This document shows, in pieces, positions 1 through 41,790 of a stretch of DNA of 64,000 bases. The notes below the pieces were generated by a model. It was not told the origin of the DNA, ran no database searches, and worked only from the letters and a program-made list of their open reading frames with translations. The position numbers and the translations under genes are program-made. Positions within the stretch are counted from its first letter, which is position 1, and every line of letters starts with the position of its first letter. Source of the stretch: a virus (Duplodnaviria; Caudoviricetes); IMG/VR virus record IMGVR_UViG_3300029305_002203, positions 1 through 64,000 of that record. One strand, 5' to 3'.

Positions 1-2
1 AT

Positions 3-176
3 GCGTTTGTTTTAGATGATTATGGTGTCAAAGGTGCTGTTATGGAGTACGGATGGGACGAAGATGCAGGTGAATTTGGAATTGTAGATACAAATGGATT
101 TGATGATTTTTATAGTATTGATAGCATTAGAGTTGTTGGAAATATCTATGAGAATAAAGATTTGATTACAAGATAA
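3..176 (+). CDS. YopX-family phage protein, C-terminal fragment (truncated by window)
   Basis: Frame 3 reads ...DSIRVVGNIYENKDLITR*; the VVGNIYEN..L ending is the YopX-family signature. Confidence 0.7.
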   Translation, partial: AFVLDDYGVKGAVMEYGWDEDAGEFGIVDTNGFDDFYSIDSIRVVGNIYENKDLITR

Positions 177-206
177 AATAAATCTTTGATAGGAGGTAAC
201 TAATAT

Positions 207-506
207 ATGTATAAATTATTTTCATTTCCAAATCCGGAAACTCATGCTCACGGAACTATTATTGGAATAAAGGATGAGGACGGGAAAGAGGTTGATGCAT
301 ATTTTAGAGATCAAAACGATGCATTTGATTACATTAAAACAAAATTAGAAAATGATGAACAGTATAAGAATTTCATTTCTCATCCAGAGATTTATGCAAA
401 AGATATTTATGATGCATTAGATGATTGGAATAAAGCAATGATACAAAAATCTTTGGTTAGCAAATATAAAAACCAATGTATGTATGAATATTTTATGAAG
501 GAGTAA
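207..506 (+). CDS. hypothetical phage protein
   Basis: ORF with AGGAGG SD. Confidence 0.75.
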   Translation: MYKLFSFPNPETHAHGTIIGIKDEDGKEVDAYFRDQNDAFDYIKTKLENDEQYKNFISHPEIYAKDIYDALDDWNKAMIQKSLVSKYKNQCMYEYFMKE

Positions 507-536
507 ATAAAAACAAAGTTTGATCAGGAGGATAAC

Positions 537-731
537 ATGACAGTAGGCGATTTAATTCATGAATTAAATAAATATGATAAAAGTAAGAAAGCTGTATTTA
601 GTGAATATGTTTTAAAGTCTATCGAAGGACTTAATTGTTATTGTCCAGAACCAAGAGACATAGCATTGGTAGATGATGAATTGCATGATGGATGTGTCAC
701 TTTGATTTTAGGCGTAGACACAATAGAATAA
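537..731 (+). CDS. hypothetical phage protein (MTVxELI-type small protein)
   Basis: ORF with AGGAGG SD. Confidence 0.7.
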   Translation: MTVGDLIHELNKYDKSKKAVFSEYVLKSIEGLNCYCPEPRDIALVDDELHDGCVTLILGVDTIE

Positions 732-750
732 CACTTTAATAGGAGAAATT

Positions 751-1071
751 ATGGTTGAAAAATATGTTTTAAAACACAGAAAAGATTCAGAGCCAATCCA
801 AGTATTAAAGTACACTGGCTGCAATTATGATGAAGTTATGGAGTTTATTGGTGATAGTTGGGGAGAGATAAAATATGTACCAAAAGAATGGTACGTTGGA
901 TTTGAAGACAATGTATTAGATTTTAAAGATGAAACCGGATCAATGTTCTGTTATGCCGGAGATTATATTATTAACGATAATAACAATGTACATTGTCTTC
1001 AGAAATTTTATCCATGTAGAAAACATTTATTTGAACCATATTATGAACCATATGATAAAAGCAGCATTTGA
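751..1071 (+). CDS. conserved phage protein (GDYII...FYPC..FE..YE family)
   Basis: AGDYIIND...FYPCRKHLFEPYYE motif common in phages; SD AGGAG. Confidence 0.7.
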   Translation: MVEKYVLKHRKDSEPIQVLKYTGCNYDEVMEFIGDSWGEIKYVPKEWYVGFEDNVLDFKDETGSMFCYAGDYIINDNNNVHCLQKFYPCRKHLFEPYYEPYDKSSI

Positions 1072-1085
1072 TGAGGAGGTGTGAA

Positions 1086-1487
1086 ATGATTACAAACCCT
1101 AGACATGGTTGGTGTAGTTTTGAATTAGGAGACTTTAAAGGTTCTCCAAGTTATTTAACAGACGTACCGGTTGAATTGTTAGATGCATTTCTTGATTACC
1201 ATACAAAAGGATATGGAGTAGCAGTTTTTGACGAAGAAGGATCTTATTTTACACTAGTTATGACAGCATATAATTGGGGAATATATATTATAGAAGAAAA
1301 GGATTATCCAAAGTTACATACTTTTGGTGATTTTGATGTTGATGATTTAAAAGAAGAACTGGTAAGAGATATTGAGAAAGATTTGAATGGTTGGTCTGAA
1401 TTTATTACAGATGATGACCCAGAAGAAATTGCACAACACAGAAATGAAATTCGACAGAGAATTGCAAGACTGAAACACAATTGGTAA
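1086..1487 (+). CDS. hypothetical phage protein
   Basis: ATG at 1086 after GAGGAGG. Confidence 0.75.
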   Translation: MITNPRHGWCSFELGDFKGSPSYLTDVPVELLDAFLDYHTKGYGVAVFDEEGSYFTLVMTAYNWGIYIIEEKDYPKLHTFGDFDVDDLKEELVRDIEKDLNGWSEFITDDDPEEIAQHRNEIRQRIARLKHNW

Positions 1488-1504
1488 ATCAGGAGGAAAG
1501 AACA

Positions 1505-1753
1505 ATGGTTGATTTTGATGATTATTTTGGTGGTTTAACCAGAGAAGAATATGAACAAGTATCTGAAGAACACTTCAAATATATTGACCATATATGCAAA
1601 TGTGATTATGAAAGAGCTTCATTGTTGTTAGATAAGTTCAAGGAAAATTTATTTGCCAGTGAATTTATTTCTGATGAAGAAGCAACAATGCTTTATCATA
1701 CAATTTTAAATTGGAAAGATAAATCTGAGATGTATGACGGCTTATGTGACTAA
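1505..1753 (+). CDS. hypothetical phage protein
   Basis: ATG at 1505 after AGGAGG. Confidence 0.7.
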   Translation: MVDFDDYFGGLTREEYEQVSEEHFKYIDHICKCDYERASLLLDKFKENLFASEFISDEEATMLYHTILNWKDKSEMYDGLCD

Positions 1754-1880
1754 ATGCAAAAATTAAAAACCCTTTAAAATAAGGGTTTTTCAAAGGTCAA
1801 TAAGTCAATAAAAACAGAATTTGATTCGGAGGTAAGAAGGAGGTGGAAAAAAAATAAAAATAGAAAATGTAAATATTGGA

Positions 1881-3245
1881 GTGCCGTATACTTACAAAGA
1901 ACTATGTGATTTGTTAGGTGCTAAATATACAAATGCGACTAATAAAAAGGTTGAATTTCTTGAAGAATTGGAAAGCTATTGTGAGTACGAAAGAGTTGAT
2001 AGTAAACATTTTATAATAACAAATATATATGATAATCCATTACCTACATTATGCAATGGCTATTATTACAAAACAATAATTATTCCAGTTAAGTGTTCAA
2101 AAGAAGATTATGATTACTTAATGCAATGTAGTAAATGGGCAGGAGATTGTTGGAATAAAATTGTAGAAGCAGATCATTCTTTCCATGAACAAAATGACAG
2201 ATGGATGAAAAAATGTGAGCTGCAAAATTTTGTAAAAGGATTAACTCCACTTCATGCTGTTGGTAATCAACACGTATATATTAAGTATGAAACTTCTCGT
2301 GATGCAATGTTTAGATCAATTGAGTCAGAACATAGTGGCAGCAACAAAGTAAGACTTCCATATAAAAAGAAAAAATATTTTGTAGTTGGTTGGAATGTTT
2401 TTTGTTCCCAGATTGATTATAAGAATCATATTTTAAAGCTTGCAAAGAAAGCAGATGAGAATAGAAGACAACAGAAACCTATTGTATGTTATTTTAAGAC
2501 AATGCCAAAGCATGTTGTTGAGATTGAGTTGATATACAGAAATGGTTTATGTTTAGCAATTAAATATAAAGAACCAAAAACAAATGATACCATCCAGTAC
2601 AATAATGTTGCTGCAATAGACCTTGGTGAAATACATAGTATCACTTCTATTGATAATAATGGTAATGCAATTATTATTACTGGAAGAAGGATTAGAAGTA
2701 TTAAAAGATTGCAAAACAAAGAACAAGCAAAACTTCGTAGTAAAAGAGATAAACTTACAAAAGGAAGTAGACAATATAAGAAATACAGTCGAGCCATATA
2801 TAAACTAAAGATAAAATCAGATAGGCAGATTTTGGACTGTGTTCATAAGATAAGCAAATTGTACTTAGATTATTGCATTGAAAATAATATCTCAAAAGTT
2901 TATTACGGAGACTTAGATTCTTGCACAAGAAATACAAAAGAAAGAACCGGTAAATTAGTAGGACAGAAGTTAAATGATTGGTGTTATGGATTGTTGACAC
3001 AGCAGTTGGAAAACAAATTGAGTAGATATGGTATTGAAATGATAAAGATTTCAGAAGCATATAGTTCCCAGACTTGTCCTCATTGTGGTAATAAGTACAA
3101 GCCAACTAATAGAAATTATCAGTGTAAATGTTGTGGATATGTACAACATAGAGATTTAGTTGGAGCGATGAATATTCTTAGCTTCAATGAAAAAGATGTT
3201 CATATTGAAAAGTATAGTAACTTAAAGTATCTACGTATTGCGTAA
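1881..3245 (+). mobile_element. tnpB: Solo TnpB RNA-guided endonuclease (IS200/IS605/IS607 superfamily, no TnpA)
   Basis: RuvC-I AAIDLGE, RuvC-II region YYGDL...ISEAYSSQTCPHCG, Zn finger CPHC/CKCC, RuvC-III HRDLVGAMNI; true start may be ATA at 1854 after AGGAGGTGG. Confidence 0.9.
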
Positions 3246-3357
3246 AGCAGAAGTAGTAGATGGGTAGGTTGGACTCCTAAGTAGTCTGGTTAAAATGTAA
3301 TCAGAAAGTACAAAATATTGTACACCCAACCAAACCAGAGTTTTATGAGTGCGAAGA

Positions 3358-3615
3358 TTATTCACACTCAGCTCTGCAATACATACCAAATCTATGTAAA
3401 CATATGTATTCATCAGAATCATGTGTTTTGATTTCGCAATCACCATACATTTGATGGCATTTGGAACAAGTAAACAGTAGTTCTTCCGAAAAAGGTAATT
3501 TTTTGCCATATTCATAAATTTCGTCATAGTCAGATAAGAATTCAAATAGTTCTTCTTCCGACATAGAATTGATGATGTTACATAAAGTGGTTTTAATTCT
3601 TTCAAGATTTGTCAT
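3358..3615 (-). CDS. small Cys-containing hypothetical protein, inverted relative to neighbours
   Basis: GGAGG SD upstream on - strand; possible own promoter at ~3645-3678. Confidence 0.65.
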   Translation of the reverse strand: MTNLERIKTTLCNIINSMSEEELFEFLSDYDEIYEYGKKLPFSEELLFTCSKCHQMYGDCEIKTHDSDEYICLHRFGMYCRAECE

Positions 3616-3721
3616 AGTTAAGTACCTCCGTATATGTTCTTATATGTATAGGATAGTATGTATTAGATGCCAAATCAAGAAAAATAGCTTTCCGATTTTA
3701 AAATTTAATAGGAGTGAGTTT

Positions 3722-3973
3722 ATGACAGTTGGAGATTTAATTAAAGATAAAAACTATGATTATATATCTTGGAGAGTAACATTGCCTGAAGATTTGGGTG
3801 GTGAAGATATATTCTTTGGCGCAGCTAAAAGTGAGAATGGTAAATTAATTTCTCTTGACGGAGACAGTTATTCAGAATGCACTGAAATTATTGGTTATGA
3901 AGAATGGGACAATCCGGAAGAAGGAATTAAAAACGGTCTTACAGTAATTTATAAAGGTGAATGGATGAGGTGA
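3722..3973 (+). CDS. hypothetical phage protein
   Basis: ATG 3722 after AGGAG. Confidence 0.7.
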   Translation: MTVGDLIKDKNYDYISWRVTLPEDLGGEDIFFGAAKSENGKLISLDGDSYSECTEIIGYEEWDNPEEGIKNGLTVIYKGEWMR

Positions 3974-3979
3974 TGCTTA

Positions 3980-4300
3980 ATGAAATGGAATGTGTATATC
4001 TATAATTTTAATCAAAATAGAATAGAGAAATACAACGTATTTAAACACGGTTCTTTTATGGAATATCTAAAGAAAGCTTGCGAAGAATGTAAAAGTAAAG
4101 ACATGCTCGCTGAAAAAATTAAGTCTGAATTGAGATATTATTTTTGGGCAAAAAGCCAATGGGAAATTATTATTTCTCCGTGGGTCGGCAAGTCAGAACC
4201 ATGCGATATAAAAATAGACGTGTTCGACCAGGTAATGATGAATTTTGATATTTTTGTGGATTATATTTGGAAAAATAGAAAGGAACTTTTAGAATTATGA
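3980..4300 (+). CDS. conserved hypothetical phage protein
   Basis: ORF with GAGGTG SD. Confidence 0.75.
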   Translation: MKWNVYIYNFNQNRIEKYNVFKHGSFMEYLKKACEECKSKDMLAEKIKSELRYYFWAKSQWEIIISPWVGKSEPCDIKIDVFDQVMMNFDIFVDYIWKNRKELLEL

Positions 4301-4467
4301 AAAGAATAATTAAAGTAACTGCTACTTACGATTTGAGTGATCCAAAATTTAAACAATTTCAGATTACTCCAAAAGAAAGAGTAAAAGAGATGATAGAAAA
4401 AGATGTTATACATGTATTTGCCGGAGAAGGATTTCGTGGTGTAGAAGTTGAAGTTATTGATAAATAA
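4297..4467 (+). CDS. hypothetical 56-aa protein (not in ORF track)
   Basis: MKRIIKVTATYDLSDPK...EVIDK*, ATGA overlap with previous gene, AAGGA SD. Confidence 0.6.
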   Translation: MKRIIKVTATYDLSDPKFKQFQITPKERVKEMIEKDVIHVFAGEGFRGVEVEVIDK

Positions 4468-4494
4468 AATCTTGGTTTGGTTAGGTGGTGAGTT

Positions 4495-4767
4495 ATGTTT
4501 AAAGTGATTGATATGTGTGATTGTATTCACGATGCATATGGAACATTTATTGATGAAGATGGAGATGTCCAGCTTATCTTATGTAATAGTTTTGGAGAGT
4601 TTTATAAAACCGATTCCATTAAAGGATATTATAAATTGTATGAAGAGTCTACAGAATATGATTTGCGTATTATCTTTCCGCAAACAATAGGGGATATAAC
4701 ATTTTATGATAGACATGAATTGATTGAATGGGTAATGAATCAACAAAAGATAAACAAGAATATATAA
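4495..4767 (+). CDS. hypothetical phage protein
   Basis: ORF with AGGTGG SD. Confidence 0.7.
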   Translation: MFKVIDMCDCIHDAYGTFIDEDGDVQLILCNSFGEFYKTDSIKGYYKLYEESTEYDLRIIFPQTIGDITFYDRHELIEWVMNQQKINKNI

Positions 4768-4798
4768 ATAAAAGAAATGTTTGATTAGGAGAAAAAAT

Positions 4799-5707
4799 AT
4801 GGGTAAGTTATATTTTTTGGTCGGACTCCCCGGTTCCGGCAAGAGTACATATGCAGAAAAATTGAAAGAAGAAGGAGTTATTATTCATTCTTCGGATGCG
4901 ATTAGAGAAGAGTTCGGTGATGTTAACGACCAGAGTAAGAATACAGATGTATTTACAATTCTTCATAGAAGAATTAAGGACGATTTAAGAGACGGTAAGA
5001 ATGTCTGCTATGATGCAACAAATCTCTCACGCAAGAGACGAGTGGCTTTTCTTCGAGAACTAAAGAACATTCCGTGTGAAAAAATTTGTATATTAATTGC
5101 TACACCGTTTGAGAGATGTTTATTACAGAACTTAGAAAGAGAACGTACTGTTCCTAGAGATGTTTTAGACAGAATGTATAGAAACTTTCAGATACCTTGT
5201 AAACAAGAAGGGTTTGATGAAGTTATTATTCATTATCTGAAAGAAGAATTTAAAGAGTATTATGGAGATGTTGCAGACCATGTGAATGGTTTGTGTGATT
5301 TTGAGCAAAATAATTCTCATCATGCACTTACTCTTGGCGAACATATGAAAGTGGCTGGCCGTTATATATCTTCAATCGTAAAAGAAGAGAACGACCTTGT
5401 TCATGCTACATATACACACGACATTGGTAAAGTTGATACTAAGGCTTTTATGAATGCTAAAGGAGAACCTATTGAAGAAGCACATTTCTACAATCATCAG
5501 AATGTTGGCTGCTATAAAAGTTTATTCTTTGGATACCCTTCATATATTAATAAAGAACATGTTGCATTATTAATTGAATTACATATGAATCCTTGGTTAG
5601 TTTGGGAACAGTCTGAGAAAGCAAAACAAAAAGAATTAGAGCTATTTGGTGAAGATATTGTCGCAGAAGTAGAGTTATTACATCAGGCAGATTTATATGC
5701 TCATTAA
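4799..5707 (+). CDS. polynucleotide kinase (AAA_33) / HD phosphoesterase, Pnkp-like RNA end-healing enzyme
   Basis: P-loop GLPGSGKS, DATNL motif, C-terminal HH..TLGEH...HDIGK HD domain. Confidence 0.8.
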   Translation: MGKLYFLVGLPGSGKSTYAEKLKEEGVIIHSSDAIREEFGDVNDQSKNTDVFTILHRRIKDDLRDGKNVCYDATNLSRKRRVAFLRELKNIPCEKICILIATPFERCLLQNLERERTVPRDVLDRMYRNFQIPCKQEGFDEVIIHYLKEEFKEYYGDVADHVNGLCDFEQNNSHHALTLGEHMKVAGRYISSIVKEENDLVHATYTHDIGKVDTKAFMNAKGEPIEEAHFYNHQNVGCYKSLFFGYPSYINKEHVALLIELHMNPWLVWEQSEKAKQKELELFGEDIVAEVELLHQADLYAH

Positions 5708-5729
5708 TTAAACTAATTAAAATAATAAC

Positions 5730-5758
5730 TTGACAAAGCAAAAGTTATCTGATAATAT
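5730..5758 (+). promoter_or_regulatory. sigmaA-type promoter flanked by two operator motifs
   Basis: TTGACA(5730)-17bp-TAATAT with TG extension. Confidence 0.75.
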
Positions 5759-5818
5759 ACAATTAAACTAATCAAAATAATAAATATGCAAGACAAAAAC
5801 AAGAGAGGAGATTCAAAT

Positions 5819-6421
5819 ATGTGTTACATTTTTGTTGACGGAGATATTTATCTTGGTATGAGTCAGAATAGTTATTTGCCTGTTAAGGATAAACTAAAAG
5901 CTAAAAGATTTCCGTCAAAACAATATGCAGAAAATATATTTAAAAGTAGTGTTCCTAAGATTTTGAAAAAAACTTATGATTGGAATATTGAAGAAGCAGA
6001 AGAATTAGAAGTTAATAGAAAAGTAAATGCTTCATATGTACATATAGATGTTACAGATTTGCAAACTATTATTAATGATTTATCCAATAAGATATCAACT
6101 TTACAAGGCAATAAAGAATGGCTTTTAGAACAAGAGTCGAATATTGATAAACAGATCAGTGATATCCTACACTTTATTGAGTTTGAAAAATTCTCTGCAT
6201 CTGAAGGTTTTAAATTGTGTAAGGCTTTAAAAGAGTTGAGATTAAAGAGAAGAGATGTCAAGAACGAACTTGAGATTATTGGTATTCTAAATTCACATAC
6301 ATGCAACAATATTGCTAACGGACATACGAATAAAGCTATTTCCGGAATTGAGAATAAACAATATACTCCTAGAGTATTAACTGAATTATTTGAAAATAGG
6401 AATATAAATGATTTAATTTAA
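5819..6421 (+). CDS. hypothetical coiled-coil phage protein
   Basis: ATG 5819 after GAGGAG. Confidence 0.75.
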   Translation: MCYIFVDGDIYLGMSQNSYLPVKDKLKAKRFPSKQYAENIFKSSVPKILKKTYDWNIEEAEELEVNRKVNASYVHIDVTDLQTIINDLSNKISTLQGNKEWLLEQESNIDKQISDILHFIEFEKFSASEGFKLCKALKELRLKRRDVKNELEIIGILNSHTCNNIANGHTNKAISGIENKQYTPRVLTELFENRNINDLI

Positions 6422-6452
6422 AAATTAAACTAATCAAAATAATAAAATACTA

Positions 6453-6481
6453 TTGACAAGAGTTTTCTGATATGATAATAT
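6453..6481 (+). promoter_or_regulatory. sigmaA-type promoter flanked by two operator motifs
   Basis: TTGACA(6453)-17bp-TAATAT with TG extension. Confidence 0.75.
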
Positions 6482-6583
6482 AACAATATCGAAACTAATC
6501 AAAATAATAATTAGTAAAGATAACAAGAGTTTTCTTGTGTAAAACCTTCCTTTCTAAAATGGCAGTGTTAAAGCTGCCAACAT

Positions 6584-6655
6584 TGGGCTATCGCCAAGCG
6601 GTAAGGCACAGGACTTTGACTCCTGCATTCGTTGGTTCGAATCCAACTAGCCCAG
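6584..6655 (+). tRNA. trnQ: tRNA-Gln(TTG), CCA not encoded
   Basis: Acceptor TGGGCTA/TAGCCCA, anticodon arm CAGGA-CTTTGAC-TCCTG, T-loop GGTTCGAATCC. Confidence 0.95.
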
Positions 6656-6696
6656 TTTCTATAAAATTCGCATAAATAATTAATAGGAGGTATATT

Positions 6697-8736
6697 ATGG
6701 AATTTGTAGCTATGAGAGACAAGTTAATGGAGAACTTCGCAGAGATGACAAAGGATGTAACACATTTATTTGAGGTAAATGTTGATAAGGATGAAATGTG
6801 GAATCTTTATCTGGATAGTTTTCCGGCTGGCACAAATGAGATTTACAGAGAGCGCCGAGAACATGATTGTAGTTGTTGTCGTCAGTTTATCAAAACTATT
6901 GGTAATGCAGTTGTAATCAAGAACAATAAGATTACAACCATTTGGGATTTTAATACAGACGATAGTACATATCAGCCAGTGTTAGATGCTTTAGCAGCTT
7001 TCATTAAATCTCACGCAGTTTCAGATATTTATGTAAGTAAGTTTAAAAAGATTGGAACTTTGCAGAATTATGAAGAGATGGAAAACGGTCATATGCACGA
7101 ATGGAGTCACTTCTTCTTAGAACTTCCTGATAAGTTTGTAGATAGAAGTAACCGTTCTGAGGGTGATATCAAAGGTGGTTTAAGAGATACAAAAAATGTA
7201 TTCAAACGTTCTCTTGATGAAATTGATATGGATTCACTTGATACAATTCTTGAACTTATTACATCAAACACTTTATATAAGGGAGAAGAATGGAAGGGTG
7301 CTTTAACTGAGTTTCGTAAGTATAAGAAAGAATATGACAAACTCACAACTGAAGAAGAGAAGAATAATTTTGCATGGGAACAGTCTGTAAAAGTTGGCAT
7401 TGCAATTGGCAGAATCAGAAATCACAGTATTGGTACTCTGCTTGTAAATGTAAGCGAAGGTATGGATTTAGATACAGCAGTTAAGAAGTATGAACAGATT
7501 GTTGCACCTAGCAATTATAAACGTCCAAAAGAAATCTTTACAAAGAAAATGTTAGAAGACGCAAAGAAGACCATTGAAGAATTAGGATATATAGATTCTC
7601 TTAGTAGAAGATTTGCTACTCTTGATGATATTACAGTAAATAACATCTTATTCTCTAATAAAGATTCTGCTAAGAGAATTGGTGGTATGGATGACATATT
7701 TGGTGAGATGGAAAGAGAAGTTATTTCAAATCCTAAGAAGTTTTCTAAAGTAGAAGAAATTCCAGTTGATAAATTTGTATCTGATGTACTTCCAACTGTC
7801 AGTGAAGTAGAAGTTTACTTTGAAAATAAGCATACAAACAATATGGTTTCACTTATTGCACCTGAAAATAGAGATGCAAAGACAATGTTTAAGTGGAACA
7901 ATAATTTTGGATGGGCTTATGCCGGCAACATGACAGACTCTATGAAGGAAAGAGTAAAGGCGGCTGGTGGTAAGGTTGATGGTGATTTGAGATTTTCTAT
8001 TCAGTGGAATGAAGATGGAAAAGATAATTGCGACCTTGATGCACATTGTAAGGAAGCAACTGGATTTGAAATTTACTATGGAGATAAGTATTCAAGATAT
8101 ACAAATGGCAGACTTGATGTTGATATTATTCATCCAGACGGAAATATTGCGGTTGAAAATATCACATGGGCAGATAGAAGAACTATGAAGACTGGCAAGT
8201 ACTTATTCTTTGTACATCAGTTCTCAGGAAATGCAAGAAATGGATTTAGAGCAGAGATTGAGTTTGACGGGCAGATTTATTCATTTGACTACAATAAGTC
8301 AATGAGAAGTGGAGAAAAAGTAAATGTAGCAGAAGTTACTTATAATGCAGATGGAACATTTACAATTAAGGAATTATTACCTTCTAACTTATCATCTAAG
8401 GACGTTTGGGGAATAAAGACAAATCAGTTTGTACCTGTTTCTGTTATTTGTTATAGTCCGAATTGGTGGGATACTGATAATGGAGTTGGCCATAAGCATG
8501 TGTTCTTTATGCTGAAAGATTGTATCAATCCTGAACAACCAAATGGTATGTTCAATGAATACTTAAAGGAAGAGTTATTGACACATAAGAGAGTATTTGC
8601 TGCGTTAGGTTCAAAGATGCATGTAAAAGATTCTGATGACCAGTTATCAGGCGTAGGTTTTTCAACCACCAAGAGAGATGAAGTAATTGTTAAGGTAAAA
8701 GGTAAGACTGAAAGAGTATTAAAGGTTAAGTTTTAA
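6697..8736 (+). CDS. conserved large-phage protein of unknown function (679 aa)
   Basis: HDCSCCRQF motif; C-terminal DLDAH...GRLDVD...VENI (YfaP/DUF2135-like). Confidence 0.7.
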   Translation: MEFVAMRDKLMENFAEMTKDVTHLFEVNVDKDEMWNLYLDSFPAGTNEIYRERREHDCSCCRQFIKTIGNAVVIKNNKITTIWDFNTDDSTYQPVLDALAAFIKSHAVSDIYVSKFKKIGTLQNYEEMENGHMHEWSHFFLELPDKFVDRSNRSEGDIKGGLRDTKNVFKRSLDEIDMDSLDTILELITSNTLYKGEEWKGALTEFRKYKKEYDKLTTEEEKNNFAWEQSVKVGIAIGRIRNHSIGTLLVNVSEGMDLDTAVKKYEQIVAPSNYKRPKEIFTKKMLEDAKKTIEELGYIDSLSRRFATLDDITVNNILFSNKDSAKRIGGMDDIFGEMEREVISNPKKFSKVEEIPVDKFVSDVLPTVSEVEVYFENKHTNNMVSLIAPENRDAKTMFKWNNNFGWAYAGNMTDSMKERVKAAGGKVDGDLRFSIQWNEDGKDNCDLDAHCKEATGFEIYYGDKYSRYTNGRLDVDIIHPDGNIAVENITWADRRTMKTGKYLFFVHQFSGNARNGFRAEIEFDGQIYSFDYNKSMRSGEKVNVAEVTYNADGTFTIKELLPSNLSSKDVWGIKTNQFVPVSVICYSPNWWDTDNGVGHKHVFFMLKDCINPEQPNGMFNEYLKEELLTHKRVFAALGSKMHVKDSDDQLSGVGFSTTKRDEVIVKVKGKTERVLKVKF

Positions 8737-37468: not shown

Positions 37469-37523
37469 TAAAAAAGGGTAAATAAAAGATAGATTTTATT
37501 GTCAAAAATAAAGGAGAATTATT

Positions 37524-38246: not shown

Positions 38247-39452
38247 ATGGGAAAAGATCTTAAAGGAAAAGAACTGGGAGTTGGATTAGGTCAAAGAAAG
38301 GACGGTAGATACGAAGCAAGAGCTGTTGTTAATGGTGTGAAAATTGCTTTATATGATTTCAATTTAAGTGAATTAAAAAGAGAGTTTGAAAGAGAAAAAG
38401 AAAAAGCAAAAAGAAGTAACGTTGTTCATTGTCCAGATATTACAGTAATGGAATGGTTTGATGCTTGGTTTGAGCAATACAAAAAGCCGACATTAAAACC
38501 AACCGGTGTAGTAACATATAAAAGAAAATTTGTTAATACATACGGTGAACAATTAGGTTTTGTTAAGGTTAAAGAATTAAATCAATTTGCAATCCAAACT
38601 GCAACATCTGAACTAGTTAATAAAGGTTATAAGTTTAAGTCAATCAGAGATGCATTATCTGTTTTAAAACTTATGTTAGACGCAGCCGTTGGTAATTGTG
38701 TAATTGATAACAACCCGGCATTAGGTATTATTGTACCAACATATGCCGAAACAAAAGAAGAAAGAAGAGTATTAACAAAAGAAGAACAAAAAATGTTTCT
38801 TAATAAAGTGGAGTCTTCTCATTATAAAGAATTATATCAATTTATGTTATCAACAGGTGTTAGAGTTGGTGAAATGGGTGCATTACAATGGTCTGATATT
38901 GACTTTGAAAATGAGTTTGTTAATATAAATCATTCATTAACTTGTCACTATGTTAAAAGTAAAAAAACTCTCATGCTTACAACACCAAAAACAAAAAACT
39001 CTTTTAGAAAAATACCGTTCTTCGGAGAAACAAAACAAATTCTTTTAGCACAAAAAGAAAAACAACAAAATCTTAAAAAGCAGCTTGGTGACAGATGGAG
39101 AGGTTCAGAAGAACTTGGGAATGCAGATTTAGTATTTACATCTTCGATGGGTTCTCCAGTTACTCGTTATGTTTTAGAGCATGATATGAGACAGATATCA
39201 AAAGAAATCAATGCGATAGAATTATATAACGCTTCCAGAGAAGGAAGAAATGCAGTTGCTTTTGACTATATTCACCCTCATGCATTAAGGCACACTTTCG
39301 CTACAAGATGCTTTGAAAAAGGTATGAGTGTGGAGACAGTTCAGAAAATAATGGGACACGCAAATATTAATATGACTATGAGTTACACGCATGTTTTAGA
39401 CGATGTATTGAAACAGGCAGCATCAAATGTGGGTAATTTCTTAGATGCGTAA
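38247..39452 (+). CDS. int: tyrosine integrase with Tn916-type arm-binding N-domain
   Basis: QRKDGRYEAR; TGVRVGE, HALRHTF, MGH, catalytic Y in MSYTH. Confidence 0.93.
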   Translation: MGKDLKGKELGVGLGQRKDGRYEARAVVNGVKIALYDFNLSELKREFEREKEKAKRSNVVHCPDITVMEWFDAWFEQYKKPTLKPTGVVTYKRKFVNTYGEQLGFVKVKELNQFAIQTATSELVNKGYKFKSIRDALSVLKLMLDAAVGNCVIDNNPALGIIVPTYAETKEERRVLTKEEQKMFLNKVESSHYKELYQFMLSTGVRVGEMGALQWSDIDFENEFVNINHSLTCHYVKSKKTLMLTTPKTKNSFRKIPFFGETKQILLAQKEKQQNLKKQLGDRWRGSEELGNADLVFTSSMGSPVTRYVLEHDMRQISKEINAIELYNASREGRNAVAFDYIHPHALRHTFATRCFEKGMSVETVQKIMGHANINMTMSYTHVLDDVLKQAASNVGNFLDA

Positions 39453-40737: not shown

Positions 40738-41790
40738 TTATTTAATTAGTTTCATTAGTTTTTCTCTTGCAGAAAGTTCTTGAGTTGGTTTCTTATTTTG
40801 TATAGTTATAGTGTAATCATCTTTGAATGTTACACCAGCACTAAACTGCATATCTAACTCAATTTTCTTTTTGTCTTCTTTAATAGATTCGTATAATTTG
40901 TTAATAATAGTCATTGGATATTGCAATCCACTCATAAATATCATATCTGTTTTAGTCTGATATCCTTGGAATATATCTCTCCAATATCCAAAGGTTAATT
41001 GTAACTCATCATAATCAACTTTCACAGTCTTACGCATAGTAGAAGATTTAATCCCACAGTAGTATAATGTATTACGTGGTTCAATATCGGCAAAAATATT
41101 ATTTGCAATAGAAGTCTTTATTGCCGATGTAATATCTGTTTGTGTAGGTTTGCGAACAAAATGATTGAGAATACCATATCCCTTTTGTTCTAACATTGCA
41201 CAGATTTCAGAATAATCATAAATACCATCAATAGAAGTAGACACATCTGATATAAGAGAATAGATTAAATTAGCAAGTGTCTCATTGCTTTTAATAAAAT
41301 TAGACTCTTTATTGTTATCAACAATAAATACAGTATGTTGAGCACAACCGAATAACTCTTTAAGTAATTCATATGAATTGGTTTTTGCTTGTAATGACTC
41401 TGATAAACTTGGAATAGTAATAACCGGAATAACAATTTTTCCTAATTCATTTTCTAATAACTCTGTCATTAATGCACACATTCCAGAAGAAGTACCACCA
41501 CCAGTTGATCCAAATAAAAATACATACTTTCCAGTTAAATAACGTTCTATGTGTTTTAATATATCCTCATAATTATGTGCTAAATATTCTTTAGATACAT
41601 CTCTGTCTTTGTGACAACCAATCGCCCCCTTAACGTGATAGTAGTGCATATCTTGTAATCCTAAACTATTCAAATCTTCCATAGCAGAATTAATATAAAA
41701 ACTTGCCAAGTTATATTTTTTAAAAGCTGCAACCTGATTTCCACCACAAGCACCAATTCCTAATAATCCAAAATCTTTTAAGTCATGCAT
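40738..41790 (-). CDS. tubZ: tubulin/FtsZ-family GTPase (TubZ-like)
   Basis: GIGACGGN, tubulin signature GSTGGGTSSG, VDN, D..EI. Confidence 0.85.
   Translation of the reverse strand: MHDLKDFGLLGIGACGGNQVAAFKKYNLASFYINSAMEDLNSLGLQDMHYYHVKGAIGCHKDRDVSKEYLAHNYEDILKHIERYLTGKYVFLFGSTGGGTSSGMCALMTELLENELGKIVIPVITIPSLSESLQAKTNSYELLKELFGCAQHTVFIVDNNKESNFIKSNETLANLIYSLISDVSTSIDGIYDYSEICAMLEQKGYGILNHFVRKPTQTDITSAIKTSIANNIFADIEPRNTLYYCGIKSSTMRKTVKVDYDELQLTFGYWRDIFQGYQTKTDMIFMSGLQYPMTIINKLYESIKEDKKKIELDMQFSAGVTFKDDYTITIQNKKPTQELSAREKLMKLIK

Follow-up and report, generated by a model that had tools for sequence, protein, structure and literature searches.

Introduction

Promoter-early stem-loop (PeSL) cassettes of T4-type phages (Arbiol et al. 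2010, PMC2839356) have short repeated intergenic elements flanking small non-essential genes in plastic regions, and the indels and replacements that distinguish related phages break at these elements (PMC2839356). Here we describe a comparable arrangement in the first 64 kb (64,000 nucleotides, hereafter the window) of the 95.5-kb IMG/VR virus contig G000 (record IMGVR_UViG_3300029305_002203; ~31% G+C; estimated completeness 56%), which derives from a large gut phage. Between positions 173 and 4785, genes are separated by an array of 18-bp sites of the form ATMAAA-N6-TTTKAT. From comparison of related contigs we consider it fairly likely that these sites are DNA-level joints between gene cassettes, whose position-specific centres would allow in-register exchange between related phages. 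An earlier note on this DNA had proposed recombination sites for integron-like cassettes. The sites do delimit single-gene cassettes and gene replacement does break there, but the integron comparison did not stand, since the sites are fixed at 18 bp and stay put, and on this contig, which begins at the array, no IntI-type integrase adjoins them; catalysis by a recombinase is a candidate explanation considered below.

PeSLs consist of a sigma-70-like promoter and a terminator hairpin, and they resemble each other closely enough to recombine within one genome and form mini-circles (PMC2839356), whereas each 18-bp site here has its own 6-bp centre, which would make in-register exchange with another genome more favourable than exchange inside the same one. 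In Acinetobacter plasmids, pdif/dif modules similarly lie between short sites of the tyrosine-recombinase type, each with a 6-bp centre, and the modules are shuffled between replicons (PMC6449649, PMC13141974, PMC9947245). However, pdif sites are 28 bp long, with 11-bp XerC/XerD arms, alternate in orientation and use host Xer enzymes, while successive sites of the present array are co-oriented and conservation beyond their 6-bp arms extends only to an A at position -1. Their arms are also, we presume, unlike Xer arms. Cassette exchange at heterospecific lox or FRT sites is engineered, with 13-bp arms and known enzymes, Cre and Flp. There, identical arms around different spacers make neighbouring sites incompatible and the same site elsewhere compatible, so that a cassette is exchanged undeleted; the arrangement here is alike, with the difference that its exchange logic is deduced entirely from comparative patterns.

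In integrons too, single-gene cassettes without promoters are arrayed with imperfect inverted repeats between them. Their attC sites, however, are 57-141 bp long with paired R/L boxes, are cassette-borne, undergo recombination in a folded single-stranded form and require an IntI encoded beside attI, whereas the sites here have a constant 6-6-6 structure and keep the same rank while the cassettes differ. As to IntI, attI and Pc, no recombinase is encoded within the window's array and the nearest is the Int gene listed in Table 1; the contig begins at the array, so the DNA upstream of it is missing. The recombinases of these phages are closer to Tn1549 Int and to YomM than to IntI. The Tn1549 target consensus is TTTT-N6-AAAA, with AT-rich arms and a 5-7-nt crossover region (PMC5871717). 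Tn1549 and Tn916 therefore offer a precedent for short A/T inverted arms around a crossover region, although their polarity is opposite to the AAAA-N6-TTTK found here and Tn1549 Int tolerates unlike crossover regions, whereas identical centres are conserved here.

Related phages share the sites but not the genes between them

A motif scan against shuffled sequence bore out the earlier note's observation: the motif is real and clustered. The exact form ATAAAA-N6-TTTGRT was matched 7 times where 0.30 +/- 0.58 matches were expected, and 0/100 dinucleotide shuffles reached 7. All seven strict matches fall inside 173-4785, six on the plus strand and one, at 3329-3346, as read on the minus strand; the remainder of the contig, 90 kb, has none. 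When two mismatches were permitted, there was no enrichment (51 observed, 59 expected), so only the strict motif is informative. The degenerate copy at 723, also listed in the earlier note, was counted as real because a related contig, G001, holds an intact version at the same rank (Table 1). The perfect palindrome reported upstream of dut was likewise found.

G001 (57 kb; loci L035 and L052) carries the eight spacers TAAATC, ACAAAG, TAACAC, GCAGCA, ACAGAA, CCAGAG, TCTTGG and GAAATG, identical to those of the window in 8/8 cases and in identical order. Its array genes nevertheless differ from those of the window in length and sequence, one cassette opening with a lipoprotein-like signal peptide, and no pair of cassette proteins from the window and the arrays of its relatives gave a BLASTP match with E <0.01. 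Short-word BLASTN between the window and G001 arrays returned as colinear matches only the end of YopX and the sites, 19-28 nt each; between arrays overall, the colinear nucleotide matches were the sites (18-28 nt), plus the YopX end in G001. This end (window 1-196) is 98.5-99.5% identical in the two phages up to site 1. Apart from it (98.5%), the matched backbone segments are 68-86% identical.

A second relative, G006 (83.6 kb), carries TAAATC, ACAAAG, GCAGCA and ACAGAA in order around other genes, although its DNA is otherwise almost wholly dissimilar to that of the window. The pattern recurred with other addresses. The chain TCCATR-TTCGTG-TTTGTA-ATTATA-GTTTCA is found in G002, G010, L173 and G006, and the chain CGTGTA-TAATTG-CAATAC in L024, L017 and L227, with the genes in the slots and their lengths differing in both. 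A further chain, ACTGAG-GTTTTG-GTTTGA...TATCGG, is common to G006 and L053; in place of a single gene of G006, L053 contains three, together with two additional sites. In cases where the phages have just one flank in common, their similarity stops at the site's outer edge. Since unrelated genes lie between shared sites and only the sites are colinear, gene replacement breaks exactly at the sites. The earlier note had held that its proposal would fall if breakpoints in relatives did not coincide with the motif; in the comparisons with G001 and G006 they do coincide. The sites thus appear to be cassette borders at which relatives have exchanged genes, and they are best named addressed junction sites. 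The window's own arrangement was found unchanged in contigs from several samples.

The centres themselves are well kept. In the window-G001 series, the only one free of spacer-matching bias, the spacers had 0/48 mismatches and the arms 9/96 (about p = 0.03 by our own estimate); set against a backbone identity of 68-86%, this indicates that the six-base centres are better kept than the backbone. Adjacent spacers are also more alike than distant ones, with a mean Hamming distance of 3.59 over 66 distinct neighbour pairs, compared with 3.97 +/- 0.10 in within-array shuffles (0/5000 as low). Fifteen neighbour pairs differ at just two positions, as in GCAGCA-ACAGAA-CCAGAG and TTCGTG-TTTGTA-ATTATA. 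This suggests that arrays grow by site duplication and subsequent divergence, for example when a cassette inserts at a site, and the likeness of neighbours is hard to explain if the sites are expression signals alone. Homologues of the slot-1 protein lie behind address CTTTAC in L488 and between ACAGAA and ACAAAG in L489; over longer times, cassettes can change address.

L155 (G003) has, at 1231-1264, a pair of complete sites with 2 nt in common (ATAAAATGATTGTTTGATAAAATCTAAGTTTGAT). The pair is an 'empty slot', in which both addresses remain but no cassette separates them.

Anatomy of the sites and their possible reading as expression signals

The left arm takes the form ATAAAA or ATCAAA and the right arm TTTGAT, TTTGGT or TTTTAT, and the two together make up the near-palindrome ATMAAA/TTTKAT. 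Eight genomes held 11, 34, 12, 15, 4, 6, 9 and 14 copies with N=6, and at most 3 at any other spacing from 2 to 11. This strictly fixed geometry points to a dimer recognising duplex DNA rather than to a loose AT-rich linker. It also has the generic form of a tyrosine-recombinase core site, with inverted arms around a fixed crossover region of 6-8 bp, since ATMAAA-N6-TTTKRT is enriched at N=6 only. The near-palindromic arms and the strict 6-bp centre are also consistent with a DNA site bound by a dimer. Outside the 18 bases, 177 non-redundant sites pooled from many phage contigs show conservation only of the A at -1, and the six centre positions are essentially unbiased; this sample was gathered with the motif itself and is uninformative on the arms.

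Palindromic arms at strict spacing would equally suit the operator of a dimeric DNA-binding regulator, a silencer or roadblock before each accessory gene. Recombination would then be incidental, homologous recombination having no other conserved sequence to act on, as with the promoter-terminator units (PeSLs) of T4-type phages. Each site stands directly before a Shine-Dalgarno (SD) sequence, and the arms are kept from Bacillus phage SPbeta to the clostridial-type phages studied here. SPbeta-like phages moreover possess a repressor with the tyrosine-recombinase fold, MrpR, which in SPbeta binds the 15-bp element SPBRE at ten promoters (PMC10516654). We considered SPBRE as the identity of the sites and rejected it: the motif common to the ten MrpR-bound upstream regions, which we derived from the ten published target promoters, is approximately AAAAATATGTATA, unlike the palindrome ATAAAA-N6-TTTTAT. 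No promoter adjoins the sites, as positions 1-7000 contain 35 promoter-like matches compared with 42 +/- 5.8 expected, and none is tied to a site; the sigma-70 early promoter of PeSLs is thus lacking too. An operator between every gene pair of an operon would have no obvious purpose, and this reading leaves the relatedness of neighbouring spacers unexplained. We consider it unlikely.

The position of the sites relative to genes was as the earlier note had described. In the window array, the stop codon of the upstream gene is usually inside the left arm, and the right arm ends 0-3 nt before the next SD. Among 100 sites flanked by genes, the upstream stop ends at site position +4 in 59, the TAA within ATAAAA being the stop, and the next start codon lies 10-20 nt past the site in most. 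With a stop in the left arm and a start so close downstream, the site fills the entire intercistronic gap. Eight of the 12 gene junctions in 1-4800 have a site; at the other four the genes overlap or abut, or the junction is a region of divergent promoters, and a cassette may therefore hold more than one gene.

This packing, and the finding that 20/22 copies in G006 are on the coding strand, could point to an action in mRNA, where the element might control translation as an operator, be a site of processing or couple the stop codon to the ribosome-binding site that follows. The arms are also asymmetric in this clade (ATAAAA vs TTTGAT). However, a left arm that contains a TAA stop accounts at least partly for both the asymmetry and the co-orientation with genes. 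The dominant arm pair would set A opposite G. The seven plus-strand copies have minimum free energies of 0 to -3.2 kcal/mol, no better than shuffles (z -0.27 to +1.3), and an arm-arm hairpin was not predicted, so that the stable stem-loop of PeSLs is absent as well. The SPbeta version is perfectly palindromic and occurs both where genes point one way and where they point the other. A role in RNA would also leave unexplained why addresses are conserved while their flanks are swapped. The RNA processing or translation signal that the earlier note had offered as an alternative is disfavoured by these results, and we regard it as very improbable.

An equally small probability attaches to the sites being promoters of one temporal gene class, read by a phage-modified or phage-encoded RNA polymerase, in which case every cassette would bring its own promoter and SD as a PeSL-like unit. 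The left arm often lies within TAAATAAAA, which is -10-box-like, and another 19-nt element, AAACTAATCAAAATAATAA, found at similar positions over 5.7-31.5 kb, looks like a class-specific promoter or operator. Yet promoters are asymmetric, whereas the site is palindromic, perfectly so in SPbeta. It ends 0-3 nt before the SD, so that a transcript start fits only if the left arm alone is the -10 box, and a conserved -35 element is lacking. A sigma-70 promoter at the sites was rejected for want of both enrichment and a -35. Over these readings we prefer that of DNA-level joints between cassettes.

Distribution of the sites

Arrays of such sites occur in many IMG/VR contigs, one of them at 46% G+C. 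SPbeta has 13 ATAAAA-N6-TTTTAT palindromes where ~0.5 are expected, mostly at gene borders. By contrast, 79 dut-anchored loci of relatives (1.36 Mb) held ~11 sites, which is the background level, and five relatives of 139-204 kb (82-100% complete) had 0-1 site each. The sites are restricted to certain lineages, and the site-poor relatives serve as a real-sequence control for the enrichment. A search of the site-free relatives for another palindrome found none that stood out.

The phages share further features with SPbeta. A YopX-family gene, a YomM-type recombinase and dut are common to G000 and SPbeta, and homologues of YopQ and YopR are present in related contigs. Nucleotide matches of the window are weak, and their targets are large Bacillus and Clostridioides phages. 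Retrieval of close relatives through the YopX gene returned G001 and one truncated contig only; a PF09643 YopX gene is found at the corresponding position in L484 and L487.

Of two metagenome scans, the first gave no matches and the second a single contig from another lineage. Among the matches listed from a scan of bacterial genomes, most were chance single matches, and three loci had at least three sites, one of them in a Lacrimispora chromosome. Exact 18-mer matches to address 4 were rejected as mostly chance occurrences in coding sequence (IKAAFD). Our literature searches found no description of these sites.

Proposed exchange and candidate enzymes

We propose that the arms ATMAAA and TTTKAT are most likely bound by a protein dimer and that the 6-bp centre, which differs from site to site, would act as a position-specific address. 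Related phages would meet by co-infection, or as a phage and a prophage. A crossover within one shared site would then swap everything on one side of it, and two crossovers would swap one cassette. Exchange would remain in register, with gene order and the series of sites kept, because only sites with the same centre match. New sites would arise when a neighbouring site is duplicated and its centre diverges. On the comparative pattern, crossovers must be confined to the sites.

What makes the crossover is about evenly balanced between a phage tyrosine recombinase, either YomM-/YopP-like or an Int of the Tn1549 type, and the phage's homologous recombination acting on short identity. SPbeta is annotated with a Sak4-type annealase, a RecJ-like nuclease and a Holliday-junction resolvase, and such enzymes acting on 18-28 nt of identity could yield the same pattern; sequence alone cannot tell the two mechanisms apart. 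Arm variants were compared with flanks in order to place the crossover within a site, and the informative cases were too few for this. A site-specific enzyme is plausible from the geometry, and candidates are at hand. The Int gene of the window has its catalytic motifs intact (HxxRH and Y motifs seen), has 6EN0 as its best solved relative and fits Tn1549 Int (E 5e-20) better than IntI4 (E 5e-10). A clear YomM orthologue is present in G000 and G001, and YomM-like matches in G004, G005 and G009 are weak, split or stop-interrupted. YopQ and YopR homologues occur in G006, G003 and G010, and in G006 a recombinase gene adjoins them. We found no paper in our literature searches that gives YomM or YopP a function. 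The YomM orthologue of G000 lies among structural genes, with catalytic motifs intact.

Several considerations weigh against cassette joints used for exchange. The case is wholly comparative, and crossover, protein binding and the link between enzyme and site are all proposed steps. Tyrosine recombinases were found in 5/5 site-bearing genomes tested but also in 2/5 site-free relatives (G011 and G012, that of G012 being YomM-like), a co-occurrence too weak to decide a link to the sites. The conserved arms are 6 bp long, compared with 9-13 bp in well-studied tyrosine-recombinase sites. Sites of different phages were paired by identical spacers, which inflates the apparent spacer conservation. 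An expression signal that recombination merely exploits would likewise be compatible with the tight packing of stop codon and SD.

Our more far-reaching proposal is that SPbeta-like phages run a natural recombinase-mediated cassette exchange, in which a YomM-/YopP-like tyrosine recombinase would bind the ATMAAA/TTTKAT arms and exchange strands between same-centre sites only, unrelated phage genomes would trade single genes in register at dozens of joints, and TnpB elements would exploit the addresses through omega-RNA guides reading the site centre. We put this forward tentatively, as a doubtful possibility.

These sites bear on the debate over phage mosaicism, in which clean swaps at gene borders without flanking homology are attributed either to illegitimate recombination with selection or to conserved linkers. 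Here the linker is explicit, short, of fixed geometry and individually addressed, and it is kept from SPbeta to uncultivated gut phages. If the sites are true crossover points, they provide a testable rule for single-gene exchange, might account for the presence in SPbeta-like phages of tyrosine recombinases so far unexplained, and would supply natural, mutually incompatible docking sites for phage engineering. Even under plain homologous recombination, they explain gene-by-gene accessory turnover with order kept.

A TnpB element at address 6

Slot 5 of the window holds a TnpB cassette, preceded after site 5 by an orphan SD (TCGGAGGTAAG). The reading frame is open from 1836 and ends at 3245 (1881-3245 being TnpB-coding). 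Translation probably starts at an ATA codon, 1854, which a second SD precedes, and an omega-RNA scaffold extends from ~3246 to 3331. OrfB_IS605 and zinc-ribbon TNB domains and a structured 3' omega-RNA place it with the TnpB proteins of IS200/IS605; no TnpA is present. We compared its 3' region (window 3246-3346) with those of four relatives of 61-79% identity (L394 2840-2990, L395 2843-2990, L396 2843-2990 and L397 2670-2830), which share this non-coding region. The last omega-RNA helix covaries (GGTTGG/CCAACC, CGTTGG/CCAACG, TGTGGAG/CTCCACA). It is directly followed by AAA-N6-TTTKAT in 4/5 elements, and in L396 by GAA-GAAAGG-TTTTAT two bases further on.

The earlier note had read the copy at 3329 as an inverted site following the only inverted gene. 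This reading was not upheld. The plus-strand spacer, CCAGAG, is address 6 of G001, and the apparent left arm overlaps the omega-RNA helix; the 'ACC' of ACCAAA-CCAGAG-TTTTAT accordingly belongs to the TnpB element, while the remaining bases make up address 6, oriented as usual. Site-specific inversion was rejected as an explanation of this copy, as it has no partner site and its apparent left arm is omega-RNA.

Because the guide is the DNA just past the scaffold, the omega-RNA guide would read the 6-bp centre of the site, and TnpB elements might home to one particular address. The DNA to the left of the elements ends in a stop codon: TAA in the window, TAG in L394 and L395, and TGA in L396. The sequence TTGAT was tried as a target-adjacent motif at site 5 and discarded, since it is absent before the left ends of L394-L396 and the orphan SD stands between site 5 and the element. 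Among the four closest TnpB genes, three have apparent non-AUG starts behind a good SD, ATA in the window (1854) and L395 and ACG in L396 (those of L395 and L396 just before position 1501); L394 has ATG.

Other features of the window

Plus-strand genes span positions 1 to ~39.5 kb, each preceded by a strong SD. The coordinates of the features discussed here are collected in Table 1.

Table 1. Sites, cassettes and genes of the window and of contig G000
Feature	Position	Strand	Remarks
YopX-family gene, 3' end	3..176	+	phrog_98 match; conserved left anchor of array; TAA stop inside site 1
Site 1, ATAAAA-TAAATC-TTTGAT	173..190	+	Spacer also in G001 and G006 before different downstream genes
Site 2, ATAAAA-ACAAAG-TTTGAT	507..524	+	Also in G001 and G006; both flanks unrelated
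Site 3 (degenerate), ATAGAA-TAACAC-TTTAAT	723..740	+	G001 same-rank copy ATAAAA-TAACAC-TTTGAT
Site 4, ATAAAA-GCAGCA-TTTGAT	1055..1072	+	Also in G001 and G006; right-arm TGA is the stop of gene 751-1071
Site 5, ATAAAA-ACAGAA-TTTGAT	1808..1825	+	Also in G001; G006 copy ATAAAT-ACAGAA-TTTGAT
TnpB (IS605 OrfB) cassette	1826..3331	+	Pfam OrfB_IS605 E 4.7e-14; Cas12f1-like TNB E 4.8e-22
Site 6 (address CCAGAG), ACCAAA-CCAGAG-TTTTAT	3329..3346	+	Left arm overlapped by TnpB element end
Multi-gene cassette, slot 6	3347..4463		Minus-strand gene 3358-3615; plus-strand genes 3722-3973, 3980-4300 and 4297-4467; no internal sites
Site 7, ATAAAA-TCTTGG-TTTGGT	4464..4481	+	G001 copy ATAGAA-TCTTGG-TTTGAT
Site 8 (last of array), ATAAAA-GAAATG-TTTGAT	4768..4785	+	G001 copy ATCAAA-GAAATG-TTTGAT
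Palindromic copy ATAAAAGATAGATTTTAT (ATAAAA-GATAGA-TTTTAT)	37482..37499		24 nt before dut
Tyrosine recombinase, Tn1549/Tn916 Int type	38247..39452	+	PF00589, E 1e-33; candidate enzyme
YomM orthologue (G000, beyond window)	85220-86260	-	31% identical to SPbeta YomM; L479 1221-2261

BLAST similarity between the window and G001 begins at 37474, by the palindromic copy before dut. The G001 array runs almost directly into dut, whereas in the window address 8 and the palindrome stand 32 kb apart, with replication genes filling the interval; window 4786-37481 looks like a large module set between two sites. The sequence of the 302-aa gene after site 8 suggests a putative P-loop kinase. A tRNA gene just 3' of the array (6584-6655; RF00005, 65 bits) was the sole match in an Rfam scan.

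Inside the array, the sole terminator-like signal is a G+C hairpin with A and T runs at 1765-1790, which closes the two-gene cassette before site 5. The cassette proteins encoded at 537-731 and 3722-3973 both start with MTVGDLI and are otherwise unlike, and this start may be a shared N-terminal module or reflect distant paralogy.

The second junction element, AAACTAATCAAAATAATAA, begins just past the end of the array. It has 21 copies with at most 3 mismatches where 0.54 are expected, 20 of them on the plus strand over 5706-31508 (e.g. 5765, 6427, 6492, 19486, 20683, 26452 and 30497) and one 3-mismatch match on the minus strand at 40743. Copies coincide with a stop codon or come immediately after one, with the following start 16-36 nt away, and those at 5706 and 6423 are followed by TTGACA-17-TAATAT. 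The element may serve the replication module as a promoter or operator specific to one gene class.

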